Under the pieces are notes generated by a model, which was not told where the DNA came from, ran no database searches, and was given only the letters and a program-made list of their open reading frames with translations. The translations under genes were made by a program, and so were the position numbers. From a virus: a stretch of 10,031 bases of DNA. Each line of letters starts with the position of its first letter. Within the stretch, counting starts at the first letter, position 1. Below, piece by piece: positions 1-10,031 of this stretch. Where the stretch lies: the UHGV virus genome UHGV-0117372; one strand, 5' to 3'.

Positions 1-145
1 TTTCATCCACTTATTTCAGGCTTATGTAATTGGCGGTGATTCTACAGCAACTTGGATGCTTTAGCAGTTCGGACATTAGGCTACGAATGACCTGCCTAGA
101 GGTTTGTTAAGCCGCAAAGTGCTGGTGCTTTATGCCTGTGAAGTT

Positions 146-176
146 TATAATTGTGTACACATAACGAGTACACGAG
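146..176 (+). promoter_or_regulatory. Putative phd-doc promoter and operator: -10 hexamer followed by palindromic Phd/Doc binding sites
   Basis: Perfect TATAAT at 146-151, then a perfect 10-bp palindrome TGTGTACACA at 152-161 and a related GAGTACACGAG element at 166-176, ending 7 bp before the phd start. The layout fits the autoregulated P1 addiction operon; operator identity is from memory and not verified by alignment. Confidence 0.5.
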
Positions 177-182
177 GTATTT

Positions 183-404
183 ATGCAATCCATTAACTTC
201 CGTACCGCGCGCGGCAACCTTTCTGAAGTGCTCAACAATGTTGAGGCCGGGGAAGAGGTTGAAATCACCCGCAGAGGCCGTGAGCCAGCAGTAATTGTCA
301 GCAAGGCTACTTTCGAAGCCTACAAAAAAGCGGCGCTGGATGCTGAATTTGCATCCCTGTTTGACACCCTGGACTCCACCAACAAGGAACTGGTTAACCG
401 ATAA
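183..404 (+). CDS. phd: Phd antitoxin (prevent-host-death), 73 aa
   Basis: The 73-aa ORF ([26 protein letters not shown]...) matches P1 Phd as I remember it, in length and sequence. A GAGG RBS lies 5 nt upstream and the stop overlaps the doc start (TAATG). Confidence 0.95.
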
Positions 405-784
405 TGAGGCATATATCACCGGAAGAACTTATTGCGCTTCATGATGCGAATATAAACCGCTACGGCGGCCTGCCGGGAATGTCTGATCCGGGTAGGGCAG
501 AGGCCATTATCGGGAGAGTTCAGGCCAGAGTTGCCTACGAAGAGATCACCGACCTTTTCGAAGTCTCCGCCACCTACCTGGTGGCTACAGCGAGAGGGCA
601 TATATTCAATGATGCCAATAAGCGTACCGCGCTAAACAGTGCGCTGCTATTTCTACGCCGTAACGGGGTGCAGGTATTTGATTCACCTGAACTGGCAGAC
701 CTTACCGTAGGGACTGCGACTGGCGAGATATCTGTATCTTCTGTCGCCGACACGTTACGTAGATTGTATGGTTCTGCGGAGTAG
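404..784 (+). CDS. doc: Doc toxin (death-on-curing), Fic-fold kinase, 126 aa
   Basis: The 126-aa ORF carries the Fic-type motif HIFNDANKR (HxFx[D/N][A/G]NKR). Its length and sequence are consistent with P1 Doc, and it is translationally coupled to phd. Confidence 0.95.
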
Positions 785-788
785 ATTA

Positions 789-968
789 ATGGCACGCAAA
801 TACAACAAATTGTCCCGTGAAGCGTTAAAGATGCTTCTTGATGGCGTGAGTCGCCGCGAGGTAAAGCAATACCTGGTTGGTAAGCAAATTGGTGCCAGGA
901 CCGCTATTGCTGTGTTATGCCGTCAGGAAATGGTTGTGCTTAAACAGAGAATGCCGGGCAGCAGATAA
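789..968 (+). CDS. Small post-doc protein (about 60 aa) with a possible LuxR/GerE-like helix-turn-helix; probable P1 PdcA equivalent
   Basis: The ORF runs in frame from ATG 768, but ATG 789 has a GGAG RBS 8 nt upstream and lies clear of the doc stop. The sequence LSREALKMLLDGVSRREVKQYLVGKQIGARTAIAVL resembles a LuxR-type HTH pattern. Position directly after doc matches the P1 pdc genes; assignment by synteny only. Confidence 0.55.
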   Translation: MARKYNKLSREALKMLLDGVSRREVKQYLVGKQIGARTAIAVLCRQEMVVLKQRMPGSR

Positions 969-995
969 AGCCCAATCAGTGATGAAAGGTGTGAT

Positions 996-2039
996 GTGAA
1001 AGCCATTATTACTCCCTTTGTACAAAAAGAGCTTGGCGTCGCCACATTCAAAGTGGATCAGGAAGTCAGAAAGCTGGTGGAGGCTGGCCGTAAATTTATT
1101 ATGGAGCCGGTACCGCGTGAGTTAATCGAGCACATGGACGACGGCCTCGTTGTTTCCGAGCAAACTATGGCAACAAATGAGGCGTTGCAGCCGTTTTTTA
1201 ACAGCGATGAACTGTTTCGCCGTATTGGTGGAATTGACTCGCTGATGGCGTGGTTGCGCAGGAAAGAGGGGCAATGCCAGGCCGCAGATCGTAGTTGGTG
1301 TGACAACCATATTGTCCACGCTGAACGAGACAATAGCGCGGTGTTGTTGTGCTGGCATCACGATAACCATTACCGGATGCGTGGTTTTAATGAGCTGAAA
1401 GAAACGCTGCATAATAATCGCGTTAACTGGATACTGGATGTCGCCCGTCAGGAAATGGGGCTTTCAGATGACCATGATTTAAGTATTCAGGAACTGTGCT
1501 GGTGGGCTTTCATGCGCAACATGATGCACCTGATGCCGGAAGAAGTCTGCCGCATATCAATAAATAAGATGAAGGCTACTCCGCAGGATAGCGGACCTCT
1601 GAAAGAGGCGGATATTCGTCCGTATGACGATCGCGCTACAGCATATGTTCAGATGATGGAAGAACGCGCTGCGCCGATGCGTGCAAAAGTATGCCCTGTG
1701 GATGTTGACTCCGACCCTGGCATGGCGCATTTCAAAATACCAAAACTGCAATCGCTAAAATTACCTGAGTACATGGACTTTGTTGCTTCCCGTCCATGCT
1801 GTGGGTGTGGAGCTGCGGGAGCTGGCGCTCACATTACGCCTTATATAGTTCGTCATAGTCGATTATGCGCGCATGACATTTATGCTATTCCTCTGTGCCA
1901 GTCATGCCAGCGTGATATTGAGCGTGACCGCGATAATTGGGAGAAAACACACGGCAGGCTGGCGATGCATCAACGATTGTTCTTTGATTACGCGCTTGGA
2001 GTCGGCGTTATCACAAGTCATTCGTCGAGCGTTAGATAA
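996..2039 (+). CDS. Post-doc protein, 347 aa, Cys/His-rich, unknown function; probable P1 PdcB equivalent
   Basis: Long ORF from GTG 996 with an AAAGG RBS-like sequence upstream. Two Cys/His clusters ([15 protein letters not shown]...CWHHDNHY and [27 protein letters not shown]...CQSCQ) suggest metal binding. Same strand and operon context as phd-doc. Confidence 0.7.
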
Positions 2040-2040
2040 A

Positions 2041-2082
2041 ATTGCTCTAATGTGTTGCTATTTCTTTAATCGAGGGTATTAT
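2041..2082 (+). promoter_or_regulatory. C1-operator-like site overlapping a sigma-70 promoter upstream of lpa
   Basis: ATTGCTCTAATGTGTTG at 2041-2057 matches the P1 C1 operator consensus ATTGCTCTAATAAATTT (recalled from memory) at 13 of 17 positions, with the first 11 perfect. It overlaps a -35 TTGCTA (2055-2060) and a -10 TATTAT (2077-2082) separated by 16 bp. Confidence 0.5.
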
Positions 2083-2127
2083 ATTCCACGTTGATTAGTT
2101 GACATGGGCTAATCAGTAGGTGACAGG

Positions 2128-2580
2128 ATGTTACTTAACTGGCAGGGACGCCACTTCATGGAAATAAATCACTCACGAATAACATCGTACGAGATTGCGG
2201 ATTACATGATCCGCACTAAATCTCTTCTATCAGCGAAAGAACTCGCAGCAATTCTTGAAAAGGAATACCCGCATCTGGATGTCGATAAGCGCGACGTTTA
2301 TCTGCGCTTAAAGGCTATCGCTGTGTCTAAGTATTCGTCTGTTTTGATTGATGACAGTACACGCCCACGTAGATTTCAGATCCACTCTCTGAATCCTGAA
2401 TTCTTTCGCCGCAGCCGCGCGCCGCGCCGGTTTGATGAAAAACTCCAGAACGAACTCTATATGACGCAGGACGAAAAGGAACGCCGGGAGCACCAGCCTT
2501 GGGTAATGGCGCGTCAATTTTTCAATAAGGTGGTCCGTCAGCACCGTCATTACGGTAATGCCACATCCGCACGTATCTGA
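2128..2580 (+). CDS. lpa: Late promoter activator Lpa (P1 gp10-like), about 150 aa
   Basis: A 150-aa ORF sits between the pdc genes and pacA, as lpa does in P1, behind an operator-overlapped promoter. An alternative start at ATG 2158 (MEINHSR) cannot be excluded. Identification rests on synteny and size. Confidence 0.75.
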   Translation: MLLNWQGRHFMEINHSRITSYEIADYMIRTKSLLSAKELAAILEKEYPHLDVDKRDVYLRLKAIAVSKYSSVLIDDSTRPRRFQIHSLNPEFFRRSRAPRRFDEKLQNELYMTQDEKERREHQPWVMARQFFNKVVRQHRHYGNATSARI

Positions 2581-2665
2581 TTGATTGCTTGCCCGTTCCG
2601 GGCCTTTTGACATGTGACTTTCGTTACCCTCGCGTCAAAAAGAGTTTTTACGAAAGGAAGCATAA

Positions 2666-3859
2666 GTGACCTGGGACGATCACAAGAAGAATTTTGCTCG
2701 CCTGGCGCGAGATGGTGGTTACACCATCGCACAGTATGCCGCCGAGTTTAATCTTAACCCTAATACCGCACGTCGTTATCTCCGTGCCTTCAAAGAAGAC
2801 ACCAGGACAGCGGACAGCCGCAAGCCAAATAAGCCAGTCAGGAAGCCACTAAAAAGCATGATCATTGATCACTCTAATGATCAACATGCAGGTGATCACA
2901 TTGCGGCTGAAACAGCGGAAAAACAAAGAGTTAATGCCGTTGTCAGTGCCGCAGTCGAGAATGCGAAGCGCCAAAATAAGCGCATAAATGATCGTTCAGA
3001 TGATCATGACGTGATCACCCGCGCCCACCGGACCTTACGTGATCGCCTGGAACGCGACACCCTGGATGATGATGGTGAACGCTTTGAATTCGAAGCTGGC
3101 GATTACCTGATAGATAACGTTGAAGCGCGGAAGGCCGCGCGCGCTATGTTGCGTCGGTCCGGGGCCGATGTTCTGGAAACCACTCTTCTGGAAAAGTCTC
3201 TTTCTCATCTCCTTATGCTGGAGAACGCCAGGGATACGTGTATTCGCCTGGTGCAGGAAATGCGCGATCAGCAAAAAGACGATGATGAAGGTACTCCGCC
3301 TGAATACCGTATCGCGAGCATGCTAAACAGCTGTTCCGCGCAGATAAGCAGTCTGATCAACACCATTTACAGCATCCGGAATAACTATCGAAAAGAAAGC
3401 CGGGAGGCGGAAAAGCACGCTTTGTCTATGGGGCAAGCTGGCATTGTTAAGCTGGCATATGAACGAAAGCGTGAAAATAACTGGTCAGTGCTGGAAGCAG
3501 CTGAATTCATCGAGGCGCATGGTGGGAAAGTTCCGCCCCTGATGCTGGAGCAAATCAAAGCCGATCTGCGTGCTCCTAAGACCAATACCGATGATGAGGA
3601 AAGGCAAACAGCCGTCGGTGGCCCTTCTCTTGACGATCTGGACAAAGTTGCGCGAGAACGGGCCGCCAACCGCCGCGCCGATGCCGCATTGTGGATTGAG
3701 CAGCGTAGGGAAGAAATCGCCGATATCGTTGATACAGGCGGTTATGGAGATGTTGATACTGAAGGTGTATCAAACGACCCATGGCTGGAACAAGACCTGG
3801 ACGAAGACGAGGAGGAAGACGAAGAAGTTACCCGCAAGCTATACGGGGATGATGATTAA
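2666..3859 (+). CDS. pacA: Terminase small (pac-recognition) subunit PacA, 397 aa
   Basis: GTG start with an AGGAAG RBS. The N-terminal region is HTH-like, the C-terminal tail is acidic (DEDEEEDEE), and the pac hexamer clusters lie inside the 5' part of the gene as in P1. The stop overlaps the pacB start (TAATG). Confidence 0.9.
2859..3045. other. pac packaging site: two clusters of Dam-methylatable TGATCA/G hexamers
   Basis: Left cluster has four TGATCA at 2859-2864, 2866-2871, 2878-2883 and 2893-2898. Right cluster has TGATCG 2989-2994, TGATCA 3001-3006, TGATCA 3012-3017 and an extra TGATCG 3040-3045. The spacer holds an IHF-like AAACAAAGAGTTA at 2921-2933. This matches the published architecture of P1 pac (4 + 3 hexamers within about 160 bp). 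Confidence 0.85.
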
Positions 3860-5343
3860 TGGCCAGAAGTTGCGTAACGGATCCTCGTTGGCGCGAGCTG
3901 GTGGCGCTATATCGTTATGACTGGATTGCTGCCGCTGATGTTTTGTTCGGCAAAACACCTACCTGGCAGCAGGATCTGATTATTGAGTCTGTGCAGGAAC
4001 AGGGTAGCAAGACATCTGTTTCGTCTGGTCACGGTACCGGGAAATCAGACATGACTTCTATCATGATCATGTTGTTCATAATCATGTATCCCGGTGCCCG
4101 CGCCATTATCGTTGCGAACAAAATTCAGCAGGTAATGACCGGTATATTCAAGTACATCAAGATAAACTGGGCTACTGCCACCAGCCGTTTTCCATGGCTT
4201 GCTGATTATTTTGTTCTGACAGAAACCGCTTTCTATGAGGTTACTGGTAAAGGTGTATGGACTGTAGTACCGAAGGGCTTTCGTCTGGGAAGTGAAGAAG
4301 CTCTCGCCGGTGAACACGCAGATCATCTTCTGTATATTATCGATGAAGCCTCCGGTGTCAGTGATAGAGCTTTCGGTATCATCACCGGTGCTCTTACCGG
4401 ACAGGATAACCGCATCTTATTACTGTCACAGCCTACACGCCCAAGCGGCTATTTCTACGATACTCACCATAAACTGGCCAAGCGTCCTGGTAACCCAGAT
4501 GGCGTTTATACGGCGATCACGCTTAACAGTGAGGAATCACCGCTGGTAACGCCAGAATTTATCAAAATGAAGCTGGCGGAGTACGGCGGGCGTGATAACC
4601 CTATGTACATGATTAAGGTGCGCGGCCTATTCCCTAAATCACAGGACGGCTTCCTTCTTGGACGTGATGAGGTTGAACGTGCAACGCGGCGGAAAGTTAA
4701 GATTGCCAAAGGATGGGGCTGGCTTGCATGTGTGGACGTTGCTGGTGGTACGGGACGGGATAAGTCAGTTATCAATATCATGATGGTGTCCGGCCAGCGA
4801 AATAAACGCCGTGTAATCAACTATCGAATGCTGGAATACACAGACGTTACAGAAACGCAGCTTGCCGCCAAAATTTTCGCAGAATGTAATCCTGAGCGAT
4901 TCCCCAATATCACCATAGCGATAGATGGCGATGGCCTGGGTAAAGCAACAGCGGATCTGATGTACGAGTATTATGGTATTACCGTACAGCGTATACGCTG
5001 GGGTAAAAAGATGCATAGCCGTGAAGATAAGAGCCTGTACTTTGATAAACGTGCTTATGCCAACGTTCAAGCCGCAGAGGCCGTAAAATCTGGTCGTATG
5101 AGACTGGATAAGGGTAATGAAACTATTGAGGAAGCGTCGAAAATCCCTGTAGGGATTAACTCCGCAGGTCAATGGAAGGTGATGAGTAAGGAGGATATGA
5201 AGAAAAAACTCAACCTGCACTCACCAGACCATTGGGATACATATTGTTTCGCTATGCTGGCGGATTATGTTCCCCAGGATGAAGTGCTTAGCGTCGAAGA
5301 CGAAGCGCAGGTTGATGAAGCTCTGGCATGGCTTAATGAATGA
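3859..5343 (+). CDS. pacB: Terminase large subunit PacB, 494 aa
   Basis: Walker A-like GHGTGKS near the N-terminus and a DEAS-type Walker B region ([10 protein letters not shown]). Length matches P1 PacB and the gene is translationally coupled to pacA. Confidence 0.93.
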
Positions 5344-5345
5344 AC

Positions 5346-5389
5346 ATTTGCTCTAATAAATTGTGTTTTTTAGCTACCGATGTTACATT
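5346..5389 (+). promoter_or_regulatory. C1-operator-like site (Op51-like) overlapping a candidate promoter for the immI-like module
   Basis: TTTGCTCTAATAAATTG at 5347-5363 matches the C1 operator consensus at 15 of 17 positions. It overlaps a candidate -35 TTGTGT (5361-5366) and -10 TACATT (5384-5389) with a 17-bp spacer, starting 3 bp after the pacB stop. Confidence 0.55.
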
Positions 5390-5395
5390 GAACCT

Positions 5396-5517
5396 GACCT
5401 CTTGCGCCTTGAGGCATTTTCGGTTTATGCTTATCAGGCACCTCATTAAAACGGGTGCCGGGATTGGCCTCCCGCTTAAGTCTAAGGCGATACAGACGCC
5501 GCTCGCGTCTTTTTTTT
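5396..5517 (+). ncRNA. Candidate structured small RNA or leader (c4-like antisense RNA analogue?) ending in an intrinsic terminator
   Basis: No convincing ORF with an RBS. Stem-loops at GGCACC 5437-5442 / GGTGCC 5454-5459 and CGGGA 5459-5463 / TCCCG 5470-5474, then a terminator hairpin. The loop TTGGCCT (5464-5470) is complementary to AGGCCAA (5600-5606) in the icd leader. Boundaries are approximate and the RNA is not demonstrated. Confidence 0.3.
5494..5517 (+). terminator. Rho-independent terminator or attenuator
   Basis: Stem AGACGC (5494-5499) pairs with GCGTCT (5505-5510) around a 5-nt loop and is followed by a run of T to 5517. Confidence 0.5.
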
Positions 5518-5682
5518 GTATCGGCGTACACGCACACCTCTACAATGGTGGGCTGTATGGGGCTACCTTCGGGTAGGCTGGTTACCTTGGACGCCAGTAA
5601 GGCCAACTCCGTACAGTCCACCGCCAGCAAGATTGGTCTCTTCTGCGGTGGTTACATACCAACGTCTAAGGAGGCTGCCAAT

Positions 5683-5904
5683 ATGGCTACTATCCCTACC
5701 CCAACTCATCCTGAATTTATCTGGCGCTTTTACTCCTGCCAAAAACGTCACTATCACTTCGTTATTGCACCAACAGAAGATGAGGCCCGCTCTCAGCTTC
5801 CTGACGCCCCATGTATTTTCTCTGCCCGTTTTTCCACTGATTCACGCAATTCTCTCAGTTACTGGTGCCTCCCTGTTAACGCTTCTGTTCAGGAGGGGCT
5901 ATGA
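5683..5904 (+). CDS. icd: Icd-like host cell division inhibitor, 73 aa
   Basis: ATG 5683 has a strong AAGGAGG RBS 8 nt upstream. The 73-aa product (MATIPTPTHPEFIWRFYSC...EDEARSQL...) has the FIW...EARxQL pattern of Icd-like proteins. Its stop overlaps the ant start (ATGA), as icd and ant1 do in P1 immI. The 149-aa ORF in the track is this frame extended upstream across the terminator. Confidence 0.7.
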   Translation: MATIPTPTHPEFIWRFYSCQKRHYHFVIAPTEDEARSQLPDAPCIFSARFSTDSRNSLSYWCLPVNASVQEGL

Positions 5905-7019
5905 GAACGTCATTAGTCACCCGTGAAGAGATGATCGAGGCAATTGAACAGCACACTGCCTGTATCAGCACCAGGGATATTCCCAGTGTTATAGCCAACT
6001 ACTTCATGATCACTAAACAACTTTACCGGAGAAAGGACAAGAACGCGGTTCACCGTATCCTGCTGTCTGATATTCGCGAATACCTGCTCGAACAGGGTCA
6101 TCTGAATTACGCAACCGTCGCAGCCGAAGCACGCAAGGAGGCACACAGAATGAAAGCAACTAACGTTAAATCAGAAAAAATTCATGCACCTTCAGTTCAG
6201 GAATCGGAGCTGGTGGTTGTTCAGAATCAGTCTGATGAAATTCCCGTTCTGGAATGGCAGGGAGTGCGTGTAGTGACAACCGAGACTCTTGCTAGAGGGT
6301 ATGGGACAGAAACAATCCGTATTCGCCAAAATCATCATGAGAACAAAGTACGCTTTGTTGAAGGGAAGCACTTTTTCAAAGTTGAAGGAGAATCATTGCG
6401 CGAGTTGAAGCACAGAGTAGCTTTAAACTACTCTGTAAAAATTGCTCGCAATGTTCGCTCACTCACCCTCTGGACAGAACGCGGCGCAGCCCGCCACGCT
6501 AAAATGCTCGAAACCGATCAGGCATGGGCATTCTTTGAAAAACTGGAAGACAGCTACTTCCGACAAAAAGAACAGCAACCGATCGCAATCCCCCAGACGC
6601 TTCCTGAAGCCCTACGCCTGGCTGCCGAACTGGCTGAACAAAAGCAACTTCTGGAACAGAAAGCCCACCAGCTAAATCAGCAGCTGGTGGCCGCCGCTCC
6701 TAAAGTCGATTTTGCCGACCGGGTATCAGTAGCTAAAGGGATCCTGATTGGGAATTTTGCAAAGGTTGTTGGACTTAAGCAAAACGCGCTGTTTGTCTGG
6801 TTACGGGAGAACGGCATCCTGATAGCGTCCGGTGGACGTAAAAATGTGCCGTTCCAGCAGTACATCAACGCGGGGTATTTCACGGTGAAAGAAGTGGTGC
6901 TGGATGATGAAGATGGCTACCAGATACGGTTGACGCCTCAATTAACGGGTAAAGGCCAGCAGTGGTTGACGCGTAAACTGCTCGATGCTGGCTTGTTAAA
7001 ACCGGTGGCAGCTGAATAA
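5901..7019 (+). CDS. ant: Antirepressor Ant (ORF6N plus KilA-C/ANT domains), 372 aa, with an in-frame internal start at 6151 giving a 289-aa form (Ant1/Ant2-like)
   Basis: The central region VLEWQGVRVVTTETLARGYG...FVEGKHFF fits the ORF6N antirepressor N-domain, and the C-terminal region (KVDFADRVSVAKGILIGNFAKVVG...) fits the KilA-C/ANT domain. AGGAGG precedes ATG 5901, and AAGGAGG sits 8 nt before the in-frame ATG 6151, mirroring the P1 ant1/ant2 nested pair. Confidence 0.8.
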   Translation: MRTSLVTREEMIEAIEQHTACISTRDIPSVIANYFMITKQLYRRKDKNAVHRILLSDIREYLLEQGHLNYATVAAEARKEAHRMKATNVKSEKIHAPSVQESELVVVQNQSDEIPVLEWQGVRVVTTETLARGYGTETIRIRQNHHENKVRFVEGKHFFKVEGESLRELKHRVALNYSVKIARNVRSLTLWTERGAARHAKMLETDQAWAFFEKLEDSYFRQKEQQPIAIPQTLPEALRLAAELAEQKQLLEQKAHQLNQQLVAAAPKVDFADRVSVAKGILIGNFAKVVGLKQNALFVWLRENGILIASGGRKNVPFQQYINAGYFTVKEVVLDDEDGYQIRLTPQLTGKGQQWLTRKLLDAGLLKPVAAE

Positions 7020-7026
7020 TGGAAGA

Positions 7027-7048
7027 ATGCCCGGTTGATGCCGGGCAT
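7027..7048. terminator. Bidirectional hairpin between convergent ant and c1
   Basis: Perfect 8-bp stem ATGCCCGG / CCGGGCAT with a 6-nt loop, placed 8 bp after the ant stop and 4 bp before the c1 stop. Flanks are moderately T-rich on both strands. Confidence 0.55.
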
Positions 7049-7051
7049 AAT

Positions 7052-7903
7052 TTATTGCGCGCTTTCGGGGTTGTCGTTTACTGGCTGCCCCTTCTTGGTT
7101 TTACGACTGCGCGTAACTGATGCGGCTGACTTAACCTTTTTCTCTTCGCGAGTGATGGCAATTTGTTTTTTTACATTTTCAATATCTGCCAGGCGATATA
7201 TTTTTGCTTGCGGCCAGCGGTCGCAGATGATCGGTTCTATGGAGTCATAAAGGCTAAATTTTGCTTTTTCGAATTCACCGTTGATGATAATTCCATCACG
7301 GAGAGTTTCATCGCAGATAAACACGCCACACAGTGGCACATGGTAACTAACTGATTTACCATCATTGTAGTTAGGGCTACTGGAAATGTAGTGGACGCGC
7401 AGCATTGTTTCGCTAAAGCCGTGTACGCGCATACGGAATTTTTCATCCTCCGGGTACTGCCTCATTAGCTCTTTTGTTGCTTCCAGGTTCTCTATGTATT
7501 TCGCACTGTGCTCATTGATCCCCGCGCTTTTTTGGATGCGAATGTCCTTATCAATCAGATGAATAATGCGGCCAGCGGTCATGTTGACGCTGTTCACAGC
7601 TTCTGTCTGATAAGTTGTAACCTTGCGCACACCGCGAAGGATGTTAGGCACTGGATATAAAATAGTCTTTGGGATATTGAGGTCTGGGTACTGTTCCAGT
7701 TCCCGCGCCATTAAAGTCCATTTATCAATTTCAGCCTGAATGCTGTCAGTTTCTTTGAACGGTAGAACGACAACCGGGCGTACAGGACGACCGTCGCTGG
7801 CTGTATCAACGTGTTGGGCGCGTGCAACAGCTTTTTTTAGAAAGAGATCCCTGAAGCTGACGAACTCCTGGTACAGTTGTTCGCCGTAGACATAATTTAT
7901 CAT
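7052..7903 (-). CDS. c1: C1 repressor of lysis (immC), 283 aa
   Basis: The 283-aa ORF starting MINYVYGEQLYQEF matches P1 C1 in size and N-terminus as remembered. A GGAGGAGG RBS lies upstream on the minus strand and coi is directly upstream. Confidence 0.93.
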   Translation of the reverse strand: MINYVYGEQLYQEFVSFRDLFLKKAVARAQHVDTASDGRPVRPVVVLPFKETDSIQAEIDKWTLMARELEQYPDLNIPKTILYPVPNILRGVRKVTTYQTEAVNSVNMTAGRIIHLIDKDIRIQKSAGINEHSAKYIENLEATKELMRQYPEDEKFRMRVHGFSETMLRVHYISSSPNYNDGKSVSYHVPLCGVFICDETLRDGIIINGEFEKAKFSLYDSIEPIICDRWPQAKIYRLADIENVKKQIAITREEKKVKSAASVTRSRKTKKGQPVNDNPESAQ

Positions 7904-7997
7904 TGATCCTCCTCCAGAATTGACATGGTCAATAACGCCCGGCTGAGAAAACCGGTCATTACTGACCTATATTATAGAGGGATCAAACAAAAATAAT

Positions 7998-8014
7998 AGA
8001 TTTATTAGTGCATT
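7998..8014 (-). promoter_or_regulatory. C1-operator-like site between coi and c1
   Basis: The reverse complement of 7998-8014 (AATGCACTAATAAATCT) matches the C1 operator consensus at 14 of 17 positions. A weaker site with a perfect TTGCTCTAA core lies inside coi at about 8170-8186 (11 of 17). Confidence 0.4.
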
Positions 8015-8223
8015 TATTGTGAGTCTAACTGGTTAGTTGCCATGAGATATTCGATTGTGTCAGTGAGGTCATCCAGGTCGTCTTGGGTGATGCGGTACTC
8101 CTGATTGGATATCTTTGAGTAGTGTTCAGCAATGGCGCGGGCTGCGTCGGTTTCGGCAGGGTCTACAGATAAAGCGTTAGAGCAATGTCTAACGTCGTCG
8201 ATGGTTGGTTGAATGAAAGCCAT
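8014..8223 (-). CDS. coi: Coi, C1 inactivator, 69 aa
   Basis: The 69-aa ORF (MAFIQPTIDDVRHCSNALS...) lies directly upstream of c1 on the same strand with a GAGG RBS. Size and position match P1 coi. Confidence 0.88.
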   Translation of the reverse strand: MAFIQPTIDDVRHCSNALSVDPAETDAARAIAEHYSKISNQEYRITQDDLDDLTDTIEYLMATNQLDSQ

Positions 8224-8341
8224 AATTATGCCTCACTGTATTGACAACACAGAGCCTGAAGCTCTGACCTACTGTTTCACCCATGATCCATGCTGGGGTA
8301 ATCTAACAACATTGCGCTGTGTGTAAGATGAGCAATGCATA

Positions 8342-9328
<987 letters not shown>

Positions 9329-9685
9329 GACTATATTTTGTACAGCAGTGGAGAAGGATGAGAGACCAGCAGTTCATTAACAGGGACTCCTTTTTGCTTA
9401 AGCGGCTCAATGGTTCTTTCTATATAAACCGTATTCCAGAGTGTTATCGCCGCCGTATGTAGTGTCAGCGCCGGTGGCGTGGTAACGCTGATCCTCCCAC
9501 CCCCAGATCCCTGATTTCATTCAGCCGGTGCATGAAGGATGCTCGCCCAAGGGCCTCACCCTTATTCAGCCCCGCCTGTATGCATCGGCCTAAGCCTTTA
9601 TCGCAAAATCAGTCCAGCATAAACAGCGTCCGATCTCTGCAGAAAATCGCCCTCAGCGCTACGAGTTTGAACGCATTTACTCTGT

Positions 9686-10031
9686 TTATAGGTAACATTC
9701 GCTCCACGATATAATGATATCGGCAACGTATTCAGCATCCTGAGCATGTGTCAGAAGGTGATCAGCCTTACCCAGGGAAATGAAACTCTTGGGATGCTTA
9801 GCTGCTTTGAATATTTTCTCGGCCTGATCAATTAACACGGTATCATCTTCAGTCGCATGAAAAATCAGCAGAGGTTTGTTCATGGCGAACACCTTATGAG
9901 CGATTTTGTGTTCCTGAATATTGTCCAGCATCTGTTTCTTTAACGTAAATACCCGCCCGGCCAGCTCAATGGGATAGGCTCCATGCTGGTTAATGTTTTC
10001 AACATCATCCTTAAAAAGACGTTTTACGTGT
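9686..10031 (-). CDS. Partial CDS (C-terminal part), alpha/beta-hydrolase-fold-like protein; N-terminus lies beyond the window end
   Basis: The minus-strand frame is open from the window edge to the stop at 9686 (…KDDVENINQHGAYPIELAGRVFTLKKQMLDNIQEHK…LLIFHATEDDTVLIDQ…GKADHLL…). The D…GxxDHLL pattern resembles the catalytic Asp/His region of alpha/beta hydrolases. The family call is tentative. Confidence 0.45.
   Translation of the reverse strand, partial: HVKRLFKDDVENINQHGAYPIELAGRVFTLKKQMLDNIQEHKIAHKVFAMNKPLLIFHATEDDTVLIDQAEKIFKAAKHPKSFISLGKADHLLTHAQDAEYVADIIISWSECYL

Follow-up and report, generated by a model that had tools for sequence, protein, structure and literature searches.

The segment at positions 5344-7051 of the virus genome UHGV-0117372 is a complete immI-like antirepressor module set between pacB, which encodes a terminase subunit, and the convergent gene of the primary repressor, c1. 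It lies in a stretch of 10,031 nucleotides (nt), referred to here as the window, that is recognizable from its open reading frames (ORFs) and annotated relatives as a segment of a P1-type phage-plasmid. The module comprises a C1 operator-like site, a leader small RNA (sRNA) of the isrK type, a C4-type antisense RNA, a target region for that RNA, and the overlapping genes icd and ant (Table 1). It probably acts as a second, self-contained immI-type cassette, in which an antisense RNA gates an antirepressor beside the gene of the repressor under attack. C1 is the presumed target of Ant and the presumed regulator at the module operator.

In reference P1 (NC_005856), the stops of pacB (93206) and c1 (93231) are 24 base pairs (bp) apart, and immI (Oc4, c4, icd, and ant1/2) occupies 48.14-49.73 kb near sim and kilA-repL, about 44 kb from the pacB-c1 site. 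BLAST against this genome finds homology at window positions 137-5341, with about 92.6% nt identity, and at 7053-8342. The 1.7 kb between them (5342-7052) has no P1 counterpart, and icd-ant does not stand between pacB and c1 there. A preliminary description of the window, made from its letters, had stated both the direct succession of pacB and c1 in P1 and the distant position of immI, and both statements proved accurate. It had also read a complete operator-leader/sRNA-icd-ant unit from 3 nt past the pacB stop up to the convergent c1, and every element of that unit was recovered. The end of the unit had been placed 33 bp from the c1 stop; the adjacency holds, and the exact gap between the ant and c1 stops is 32 nt, a trivial difference.

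Both RNA elements score above the gathering scores of their Rfam models. The C4 fold has a predicted energy of -41.6 kcal/mol (z = -3.64) and 11 compensatory stem pairs, and its acceptor-like stem and 3' CCACC motif are conserved. Annotations in the P1 record give the C4 targets a1, b1, a2, and b2, and the matching a' and b' boxes of C4 were located via the reverse complements. In P1 C4, a' (CUGUCAA) lies in the single-stranded linker and b' (UCACUAAC) in the loop of the second hairpin. The window boxes are in register with the annotated P1 a1/b1/a'/b'/a2/b2 sites, and their spacings are P1-like. The P1 leader and the window leader are homologous but belong to different subtypes: the P1 leader scores 51 bits against the Rfam model c4-a1b1 and only 35.1 bits against isrK, and the window leader shows the reverse.

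The boxes differ among copies of the module and remain complementary. A survey that used a conserved leader motif collected 55 IMG/VR loci, which together with three annotated phages gave 58 assessable copies. Five box combinations occur among them, and Watson-Crick or G-U pairing is complete in 231 of the 232 box pairings. The formal count was made on 20 distinct cassettes, comprising 17 module variants, D6, and two lambdoid phages. In these, pairing amounts to 99-100% in the a1:a', b1:b', a':a2, and b':b2 helices, each of which has 4-5 compensatory positions; pairing with C4 is 100% for a2/b2 and 99-100% for a1/b1, with 9 compensatory positions in both cases. When the 3' partner was slid by 1-3 columns as a control, only 28-50% of all counted-structure cells paired. 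No shuffle out of 500 reached the observed covariation. Sequence relatedness inflates this test, and more weight falls on the slid-partner control and on the large number of independent box types. Compensatory change that runs through all three members of a1/a'/a2 and of b1/b'/b2, in five combinations, calls for continued selection on RNA pairing.

The sole mispaired box belongs to a recombinant, L043 (IMGVR_UViG_2778261639_000014, about 5042-5309, minus strand), whose a1 is of another type (TTGAGAC versus a'/a2 GTTCCAA/TTGGAAC). The ant gene of this locus is also divergent, with 81% identity over a fragment. The coding part of the module is likewise well kept: icd is intact in 54 of 55 copies (73 amino acids (aa) in 54 of the 55 assessable), and ant encodes 370-372 aa in 33 of 40.

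Table 1. Elements of the pacB-c1 module, its flanking genes, and the other genes of the P1-type segment in the window
Feature	Position	Strand	Basis or remark
C1 repressor operator-like site TTTGCTCTAATAAATTG	5347-5363	+	2 mismatches to consensus ATTGCTCTAATAAATTT; 3 nt past pacB stop
Putative C1-controlled promoter	5361-5389	+	-35 TTGTGT 5361-5366; extended -10 TGtTACATT 5381-5389
Putative constitutive leader promoter	5402-5431	+	-35 TTGCGC 5402-5407; 18-nt spacer; -10 TATGCT 5426-5431; start near 5438
isrK-type leader sRNA	5438-5515	+	Rfam RF01394, 60.8 bits (gathering score 50)
a1 TTGGCCT	5464-5470	+	leader hairpin loop
b1 GTCTAAGG	5480-5487	+	leader
Leader intrinsic terminator	5494-5510	+	hairpin and run of 8 U; terminator scan
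C4-type antisense RNA	5541-5628	+	Rfam RF01695, full model, 75.9 bits (gathering score 45)
b' CCTTGGAC	5585-5592	+	10-nt loop of C4
a' AGGCCAA	5600-5606	+	8-nt single-stranded linker of C4
C4 target region with a2 and b2	5633-5674	+	box mapping against annotated P1 a2/b2 sites
a2 TTGGTCT	5633-5639	+	downstream of C4
b2 GTCTAAGG	5664-5671	+	overlaps icd Shine-Dalgarno AAGGAGG (5668-5674), 8 nt before ATG
icd homologue, 73 aa	5683-5904	+	82% aa identity to P1 Icd
ant, 372 aa, Ant1-like	5901-7019	+	56% overall identity to P1 Ant1
Internal Ant2-like start	6150 (ATG)	+	Met84 in KEAHRM, in frame, AAGGAGG upstream; common to canonical Ant1 proteins
GC-rich hairpin, 9 bp, between convergent ant and c1	7027-7048		terminator scan; -18 kcal/mol, z = -4.08
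pacB (terminase subunit), left flank	3859-5343	+	ORF list; annotated pacB/terminase in relatives
c1 (primary repressor), right flank	7052-7903	-	99% aa identity to P1 C1
phd	183-404		ORF list and annotated relatives
doc	404-784		ORF list and annotated relatives
pdcA, pdcB	between doc and lpa		gene listing of the window
lpa	2128-2580		ORF list and annotated relatives
pacA	2666-3859		ORF list and annotated relatives
coi	8014-8223	-	ORF list and annotated relatives

The C4 boxes of the window match their own targets and, by predicted pairing, are orthogonal to P1/P7 immI in both directions. The canonical P1 boxes (target/C4) are TTGACAG/CTGTCAA for a and GTTAGTG/CACTAAC for b, and those of P7 and RCS47 are TTAGCAG/CTGCTAA and GATTGTG/CACAATC. 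JL22 combines an a box as in P1 with a b box as in P7, while vB_EcoM-673R5 has an a box as in P7 and a third type of b; none of these canonical sequences resembles the boxes of the pacB-c1 module. Cognate duplexes have predicted energies of about -9 kcal/mol at a and -12 to -14.5 kcal/mol at b, compared with only -1 to -5 kcal/mol for the window C4 against the canonical targets of P1, P7, 673R5, and JL22, and for the reverse combinations. Among the module's own box types, B1 and B3 are one base apart and cross-pair in part at b, but no such pairing occurs at a. The preliminary description had expected a different immunity specificity from divergence of Icd and Ant. The difference in specificity stands, and it is the C4 boxes and their targets, rather than Icd/Ant divergence, that set it. 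All 29 IMG/VR matches of the window's b'+a' string lie downstream of pacB, with no cross-family sharing for this type.

The operator is aligned with P1 Oc4/Op51 and is kept in 38 of 38 distinct module copies, single-base variants aside. The chance expectation for C1-operator sites with at most three mismatches in the whole window is 0.04. The operator overlaps the -35 hexamer of a putative promoter that, by alignment with the annotated P1 element, is the positional homologue of P1 P2c4 (P51a). The second putative promoter, which would drive the leader, is proposed from alignment with D6 and with the Stx-phage cassettes, whose promoter (TTGACT-17-TATATT) is clear. Its putative transcription start is near 5438, the position at which the Rfam isrK model begins. 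No terminator lies between pacB and the module leader. At the other end, the hairpin between the convergent ant and c1 genes is probably a bidirectional terminator common to both.

The preliminary description took the 73-aa and 372-aa proteins for Icd and Ant, and comparison with P1 bears this out (Table 1), with KilAC and thus antirepressor homology present in the larger one. Icd matches the NCBIfam model phage_ICD_like with 49.8 bits (cutoff 25) as well as phrog_1426. The icd stop overlaps the ant start in ATGA (5901-5904), from which translational coupling of the two genes is inferred, and icd translation probably gates ant. Ant matches the Pfam domains ANT/KilAC (4e-31, 107.9 bits, cutoff 25.3) and ORF6N (2e-19, 70.1 bits, cutoff 27.8) and the family phrog_63, 'anti-repressor Ant' (1.9e-131). 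Its layout consists of a P1-like N-terminus, an ORF6N centre (aa 113-229), and a KilAC C-terminus. Icd, C1, and Coi have no Pfam match, the window Ant is without an NCBIfam model, and a PDB sequence search with Ant finds no solved relative. The window Ant is 96-99% identical to the L002 and L010 variants at the termini and only 69% identical in the ORF6N centre, which marks this domain as the fast-evolving or exchanged part of the protein. A 78-aa ORF at 5340-5576 and similar 'hypothetical' ORFs were rejected as genes, as they overlie the operator, promoters, and leader; the PHROG match is marginal (E = 3e-4).

The preliminary description offered two explanations for the arrangement, a modular swap or a second immunity module, and the evidence favours the second module and not the swap. 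RCS47, JL22, and vB_EcoM-673R5 each carry a canonical c4-icd-ant1/2 by kilA in addition to the pacB-c1 module, and 26 of the 30 best plasmid hits have at least two matching places. Because both modules occur in intact phages, the pacB-c1 module is an addition rather than a relocation. Each of the 55 IMG/VR loci and each annotated relative has it between pacB and c1, and not at the canonical sim/kilA-repL position. The distance from the pacB 3' end to the leader motif is 94 bp in 55 of 55 IMG/VR loci, and c1 is downstream in all 33 whose contig reaches c1 and whose module is uninterrupted. The module accompanies both pacB allele lineages, which are about 83% and 99% identical to the window pacB.

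The module is also common, and less unusual than the preliminary description implied. About 290 PLSDB records contain at least 80% of it, and the contiguous P1-type junction is present in 317 of the 703 records that match a pacB/c1 junction probe. Its share among P1-like plasmids is roughly 40-45%, and it occurs in 279 of 5,426 complete E. coli genomes. Its proteins are already annotated in GenBank, and one 2019 paper (PMC6906374) mentions it in a single sentence.

Nucleotide identity to P1 immI varies along the module, from 55% in the operator and promoter part, 43% in the leader, and 52% in C4 to 73% in icd. In Ant it is 64% at the N-terminus (protein 62%), 39% in the centre (protein 20%), and 79% at the C-terminus (protein 86% over 143 aa). 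On these sequence comparisons, the module is a mosaic with a P1-like operator, a leader and C4 nearest to Stx-phage and D6 cassettes, and an ORF6N Ant centre, and it is an old paralogue or a recombinant. A recent duplication of canonical immI is ruled out by the low identity of the RNA part (43-52%) and the unrelated Ant centre. The difference from P1 may go back to an insertion in the carriers or to a deletion in the P1 lineage; when both junctions are aligned with P1, about 9 of the 17 c1-proximal spacer bases match, and pacB and ant both end in GAAT(A/G)A.

The likely course of regulation can be assembled from the annotations of the P1 record, the general background on P1 immI, and a study of IsrK (PMC4825925). 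The P1 record annotates a2/b2 as sites of 'repression of icd ant translation' and icd as 'apparently required for expression of ant'. In a lysogen, the constitutive promoter would drive a leader-C4 transcript, out of which C4 would then be processed. C4 would pair with a2/b2, occlude the icd ribosome-binding site, and block icd translation. Since ant depends on icd translation, it would be neither translated nor read through, and no Ant would be made. C1 on the operator would also shut the upstream promoter. Upon entry into a cell without the matching C4, either a naive cell or a lysogen whose resident P1 relative has different C4 types, Icd and Ant would be produced. Ant, as an Ant1/Ant2 pair, would inactivate C1, and lytic growth would be favoured or the resident element induced. 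The short terminated leader with a1/b1 would probably be a decoy that titrates C4, or a trans activator like IsrK. Because the pacB-c1 module is predicted to be orthogonal to canonical immI, an element with both modules would have two independent locks. As a resident it would silence more incoming types, and as an invader it would escape any resident in which one or the other C4 key is lacking.

Several observations weigh against this mechanism or parts of it. Expression, C4 processing, and Ant-C1 binding in the pacB-c1 module are inferred from homology, and both promoters are proposed from alignment. A generic sigma-70 promoter scan of 5250-7150 finds none in 5344-5440. The predicted leader fold does not exceed shuffled sequence in stability (z = -0.96), so the leader call relies on its Rfam score and on a1/b1 covariation; two of the three leader hairpins are invariant and hence uninformative. 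In the window-type boxes, a2:a', b1:b', and b2:b' each include one G-U pair. The Ant centre is unrelated to that of P1 Ant1, in which no ORF6N signal is found even at E<=10, and the target specificity of Ant could therefore differ from that of P1 Ant1. Some copies elsewhere are truncated, interrupted, or duplicated. Lastly, the closest complete relative of the window, NZ_CP145673.1 (99.7% identical over window 1-9310), is an IncY/IncX1 hybrid plasmid with capsule-gene cargo and many insertion sequence (IS) elements, and has no phage structural genes, canonical immI, or kilA-repL. The switch may thus no longer govern a lytic cycle in the window's replicon.

The irregular copies take several forms. 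In L029 (IMGVR_UViG_2698536372_000019, minus strand), the leader-C4-icd-ant 5' part occurs twice in tandem, 1,566 bp apart, on one P1-like contig (motifs at 1115-1143 and 2681-2709). In L062 (IMGVR_UViG_646311924_000007, 7421-8731), icd and ant are separated by about 1.3 kb of inserted DNA, and homology is lost inside icd around position 12019 of L064, leaving a disrupted module. In the record of vB_EcoM-673R5 (L009, ON470615.2, 2053-4052), the module ant (774 nt, 'Roi') and c1 are both annotated as fragments, which suggests frameshifts or sequencing errors.

The unrelated Ant centre raises the possibility that regulation proceeds as described while the repressor inactivated by Ant belongs to a different element, for instance a lambdoid or Stx prophage, and that the module serves prophage cross-induction. 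The ORF6N centre matches many PHROG anti-repressor families, unlike P1 Ant1, and the leader and C4 are nearer to Stx/lambdoid Rha cassettes (about 79%) than to the P1 immI leader and C4 (43-52%). Trans-acting antirepressors reportedly cross-induce prophages in Salmonella. Such a target is nevertheless improbable given that a C1 operator is present at the P1 Op51 position, that the module adjoins c1 in every copy, and that the protein shares its N-terminus and C-terminal 143 aa with P1 Ant1 (62% and 86%), Ant2 start included, in a replicon whose C1 is 99% identical to P1 C1. The irregular copies, in turn, could be taken to mean that the module is a decaying, non-functional duplicate or hitch-hiker with no present role. 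Three-way compensatory box changes in five combinations, intact icd in 54 of 55 copies, full-length ant in 33 of 40, and an operator conserved in all variants make this very unlikely, despite truncated, insertion-split, or tandemly duplicated copies, the fragmented ant and c1 of the 673R5 record, and the absence of the module from about half of P1-like plasmids.

A better case can be made that the module is the only immI of the window's own replicon, by swap or as a survivor, and thus a remnant switch on a degraded P1-derived plasmid. The closest complete relative lacks canonical immI and kilA-repL, and the window itself has an IS5 in imcA that is truncated at about 9310 and joined to F-type plasmid DNA. 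This bears on the host replicon rather than on the identity of the module, and it remains the lesser possibility: all three sequenced module-bearing phages also have canonical immI, the majority of full-length plasmid hits match at a second place too, and the window's undamaged ORFs and boxes have identical counterparts on plasmids of about 95-128 kb with two matching places. An antisense-RNA-gated antirepressor cassette, second to immI and directed at C1, thus continues to be the favoured account of the module.

Beyond this account, the immunity of P1-like phage-plasmids may be a combinatorial RNA barcode across two orthogonal C4 loci, with the module as an extra lock and an anti-immunity weapon, although this extension is tentative and somewhat doubtful. 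It would entail that box diversity is kept by frequency-dependent selection and that box types are common to phage families, so that unrelated plasmid-prophages could silence or induce each other. Late pacAB transcription could also yield the a1/b1 decoy and lock in lytic commitment, because no terminator intervenes before the leader.

P1 immunity, with its immC, immI, and immT loci, is a textbook system whose definition comes from a single laboratory phage. In nature, close to half of P1-like plasmids have a second, apparently orthogonal immI-type switch by c1, with at least five RNA specificities. If the proposed mechanism is true, two loci would decide heteroimmunity and bear on co-existence, displacement, and induction among P1-like plasmids, many of which have resistance genes such as SHV-2 or CTX-M. 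The switch would also be relevant when P1 is used for transduction or delivery into wild E. coli, where the module is present in about 5%, and its variants would constitute natural sets of orthogonal antisense/target pairs.

The pacB-c1 module shares with P1/P7 immI a C1 operator over the first promoter, an a1/b1 leader, the C4 fold, and the order of parts. Also shared are a2/b2 boxes over the icd ribosome-binding site, a 73-aa Icd, the icd/ant overlap, nested Ant1/Ant2, a KilAC C-terminus, and specificity set by short complementary boxes that differ between heteroimmune phages. In P1-type immI, C4 is released by RNase P, and the window C4, which keeps the acceptor-like stem and 3' CCACC, may be released likewise. 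The pacB-c1 module differs in its location, its isrK-subtype rather than c4-a1b1-subtype leader, its unrelated boxes, its ORF6N Ant centre, and its co-residence with canonical immI.

The nearest leader and C4 sequences, about 79% identical, are those of Stx/lambdoid isrK-C4 cassettes, which stand upstream of Rha-family regulators in about 170 phages, including P13374 and PhiR12_3. The Stx and D6 cassettes exceed the gathering scores of both Rfam models and have compensated boxes of their own. Unlike the window module, they have no C1 operator, lie in another genomic context, and precede a Rha-type regulator; the Stx cassettes have no separate icd and carry the b2/ribosome-binding-site box directly before the regulator ORF. 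In D6 (L011, NC_050154, 4251-5672), an isrK-C4-icd unit by ref shares 87% identity with the module variants of JL22 and RCS47. It has exactly JL22-type boxes, yet a Rha-type Ant follows downstream. The same C4 specificity thus occurs in elements that belong to different phage families. D6 has another icd-like region near 21 kb. In Stx phage P13374 (L067), an Rfam sRNA-Xcc1 match (3523-3606, 79.6 bits) lies downstream of the isrK-C4 cassette, by antB2 and antitermination genes. No RNA family other than the leader and C4 is found by Rfam in the window.

More distant parallels are P4 immunity, which uses the CI RNA with seqA, seqB, and seqC, and P22 immI, with the sar RNA and ant. In both, a small processed or antisense RNA is an immunity factor and pairs with short flanking complementary sites. 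In P22, the antisense RNA controls an antirepressor, but sar is cis-antisense and unrelated in sequence. P4 CI acts via transcription termination of replication genes, with no antirepressor.

P4 immunity is also cited in the study of the Gifsy-1 isrK-orf45-anrP locus of Salmonella (Hershko-Shalev et al. 2016, PMC4825925). In that locus, the short IsrK leader activates in trans the translation of a downstream small ORF and its coupled antirepressor. The window module shares with it an isrK-model leader ending in an intrinsic terminator, followed by a structured RNA, a small ORF, and an antirepressor, the processing of the RNA and the coupling being predicted for the window. It differs in having a P1 C1 operator, icd as the small ORF, and a P1 Ant-like antirepressor; the evidence for a short leader that activates in trans, and for Hfq binding, comes only from Gifsy-1 (PMC4825925). 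The pacB-c1 module is thus another immI / isrK-C4-gated antirepressor cassette. The mechanism is not new, and the implication of two-lock combinatorial specificity is of moderate interest.

One sentence in Venturini et al. 2019 (PMC6906374) notes an "ant" gene at the pacB-c1 site and mentions 'two short hypothetical orfs'. Apart from that sentence and a D6-like note, literature searches, whose coverage excluded the D6 genome paper of Gilcrease and Casjens, returned no account of the module operator, leader, C4, box specificities, or orthogonality. GenBank and RefSeq annotate the module proteins as Icd-like and Ant (Roi in some records). The RNA genes are unannotated, or lie under spurious coding sequence (CDS) calls, in every record examined, and the missing C4 annotation is a correctable annotation error. 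A RefSeq 'ash family protein' pseudo-CDS (window 5557-5658) overlies C4, and the ORFs in the JL22 record, like the two of Venturini et al., overlie the operator, leader, and C4.

On the far side of c1 and coi, P1 homology ends at window position 8342, where a copy of IS5/ISKpn26 starts (inverted repeat GGAAGGTGCGAATAAG at 8343) within imcA, at the same insertion site as in RCS47. The IS copy breaks off at about 9310, where it meets an alpha/beta-hydrolase region (9311-10031) that is frequent on F-type plasmids. This truncation and junction indicate that the window's replicon has been rearranged.

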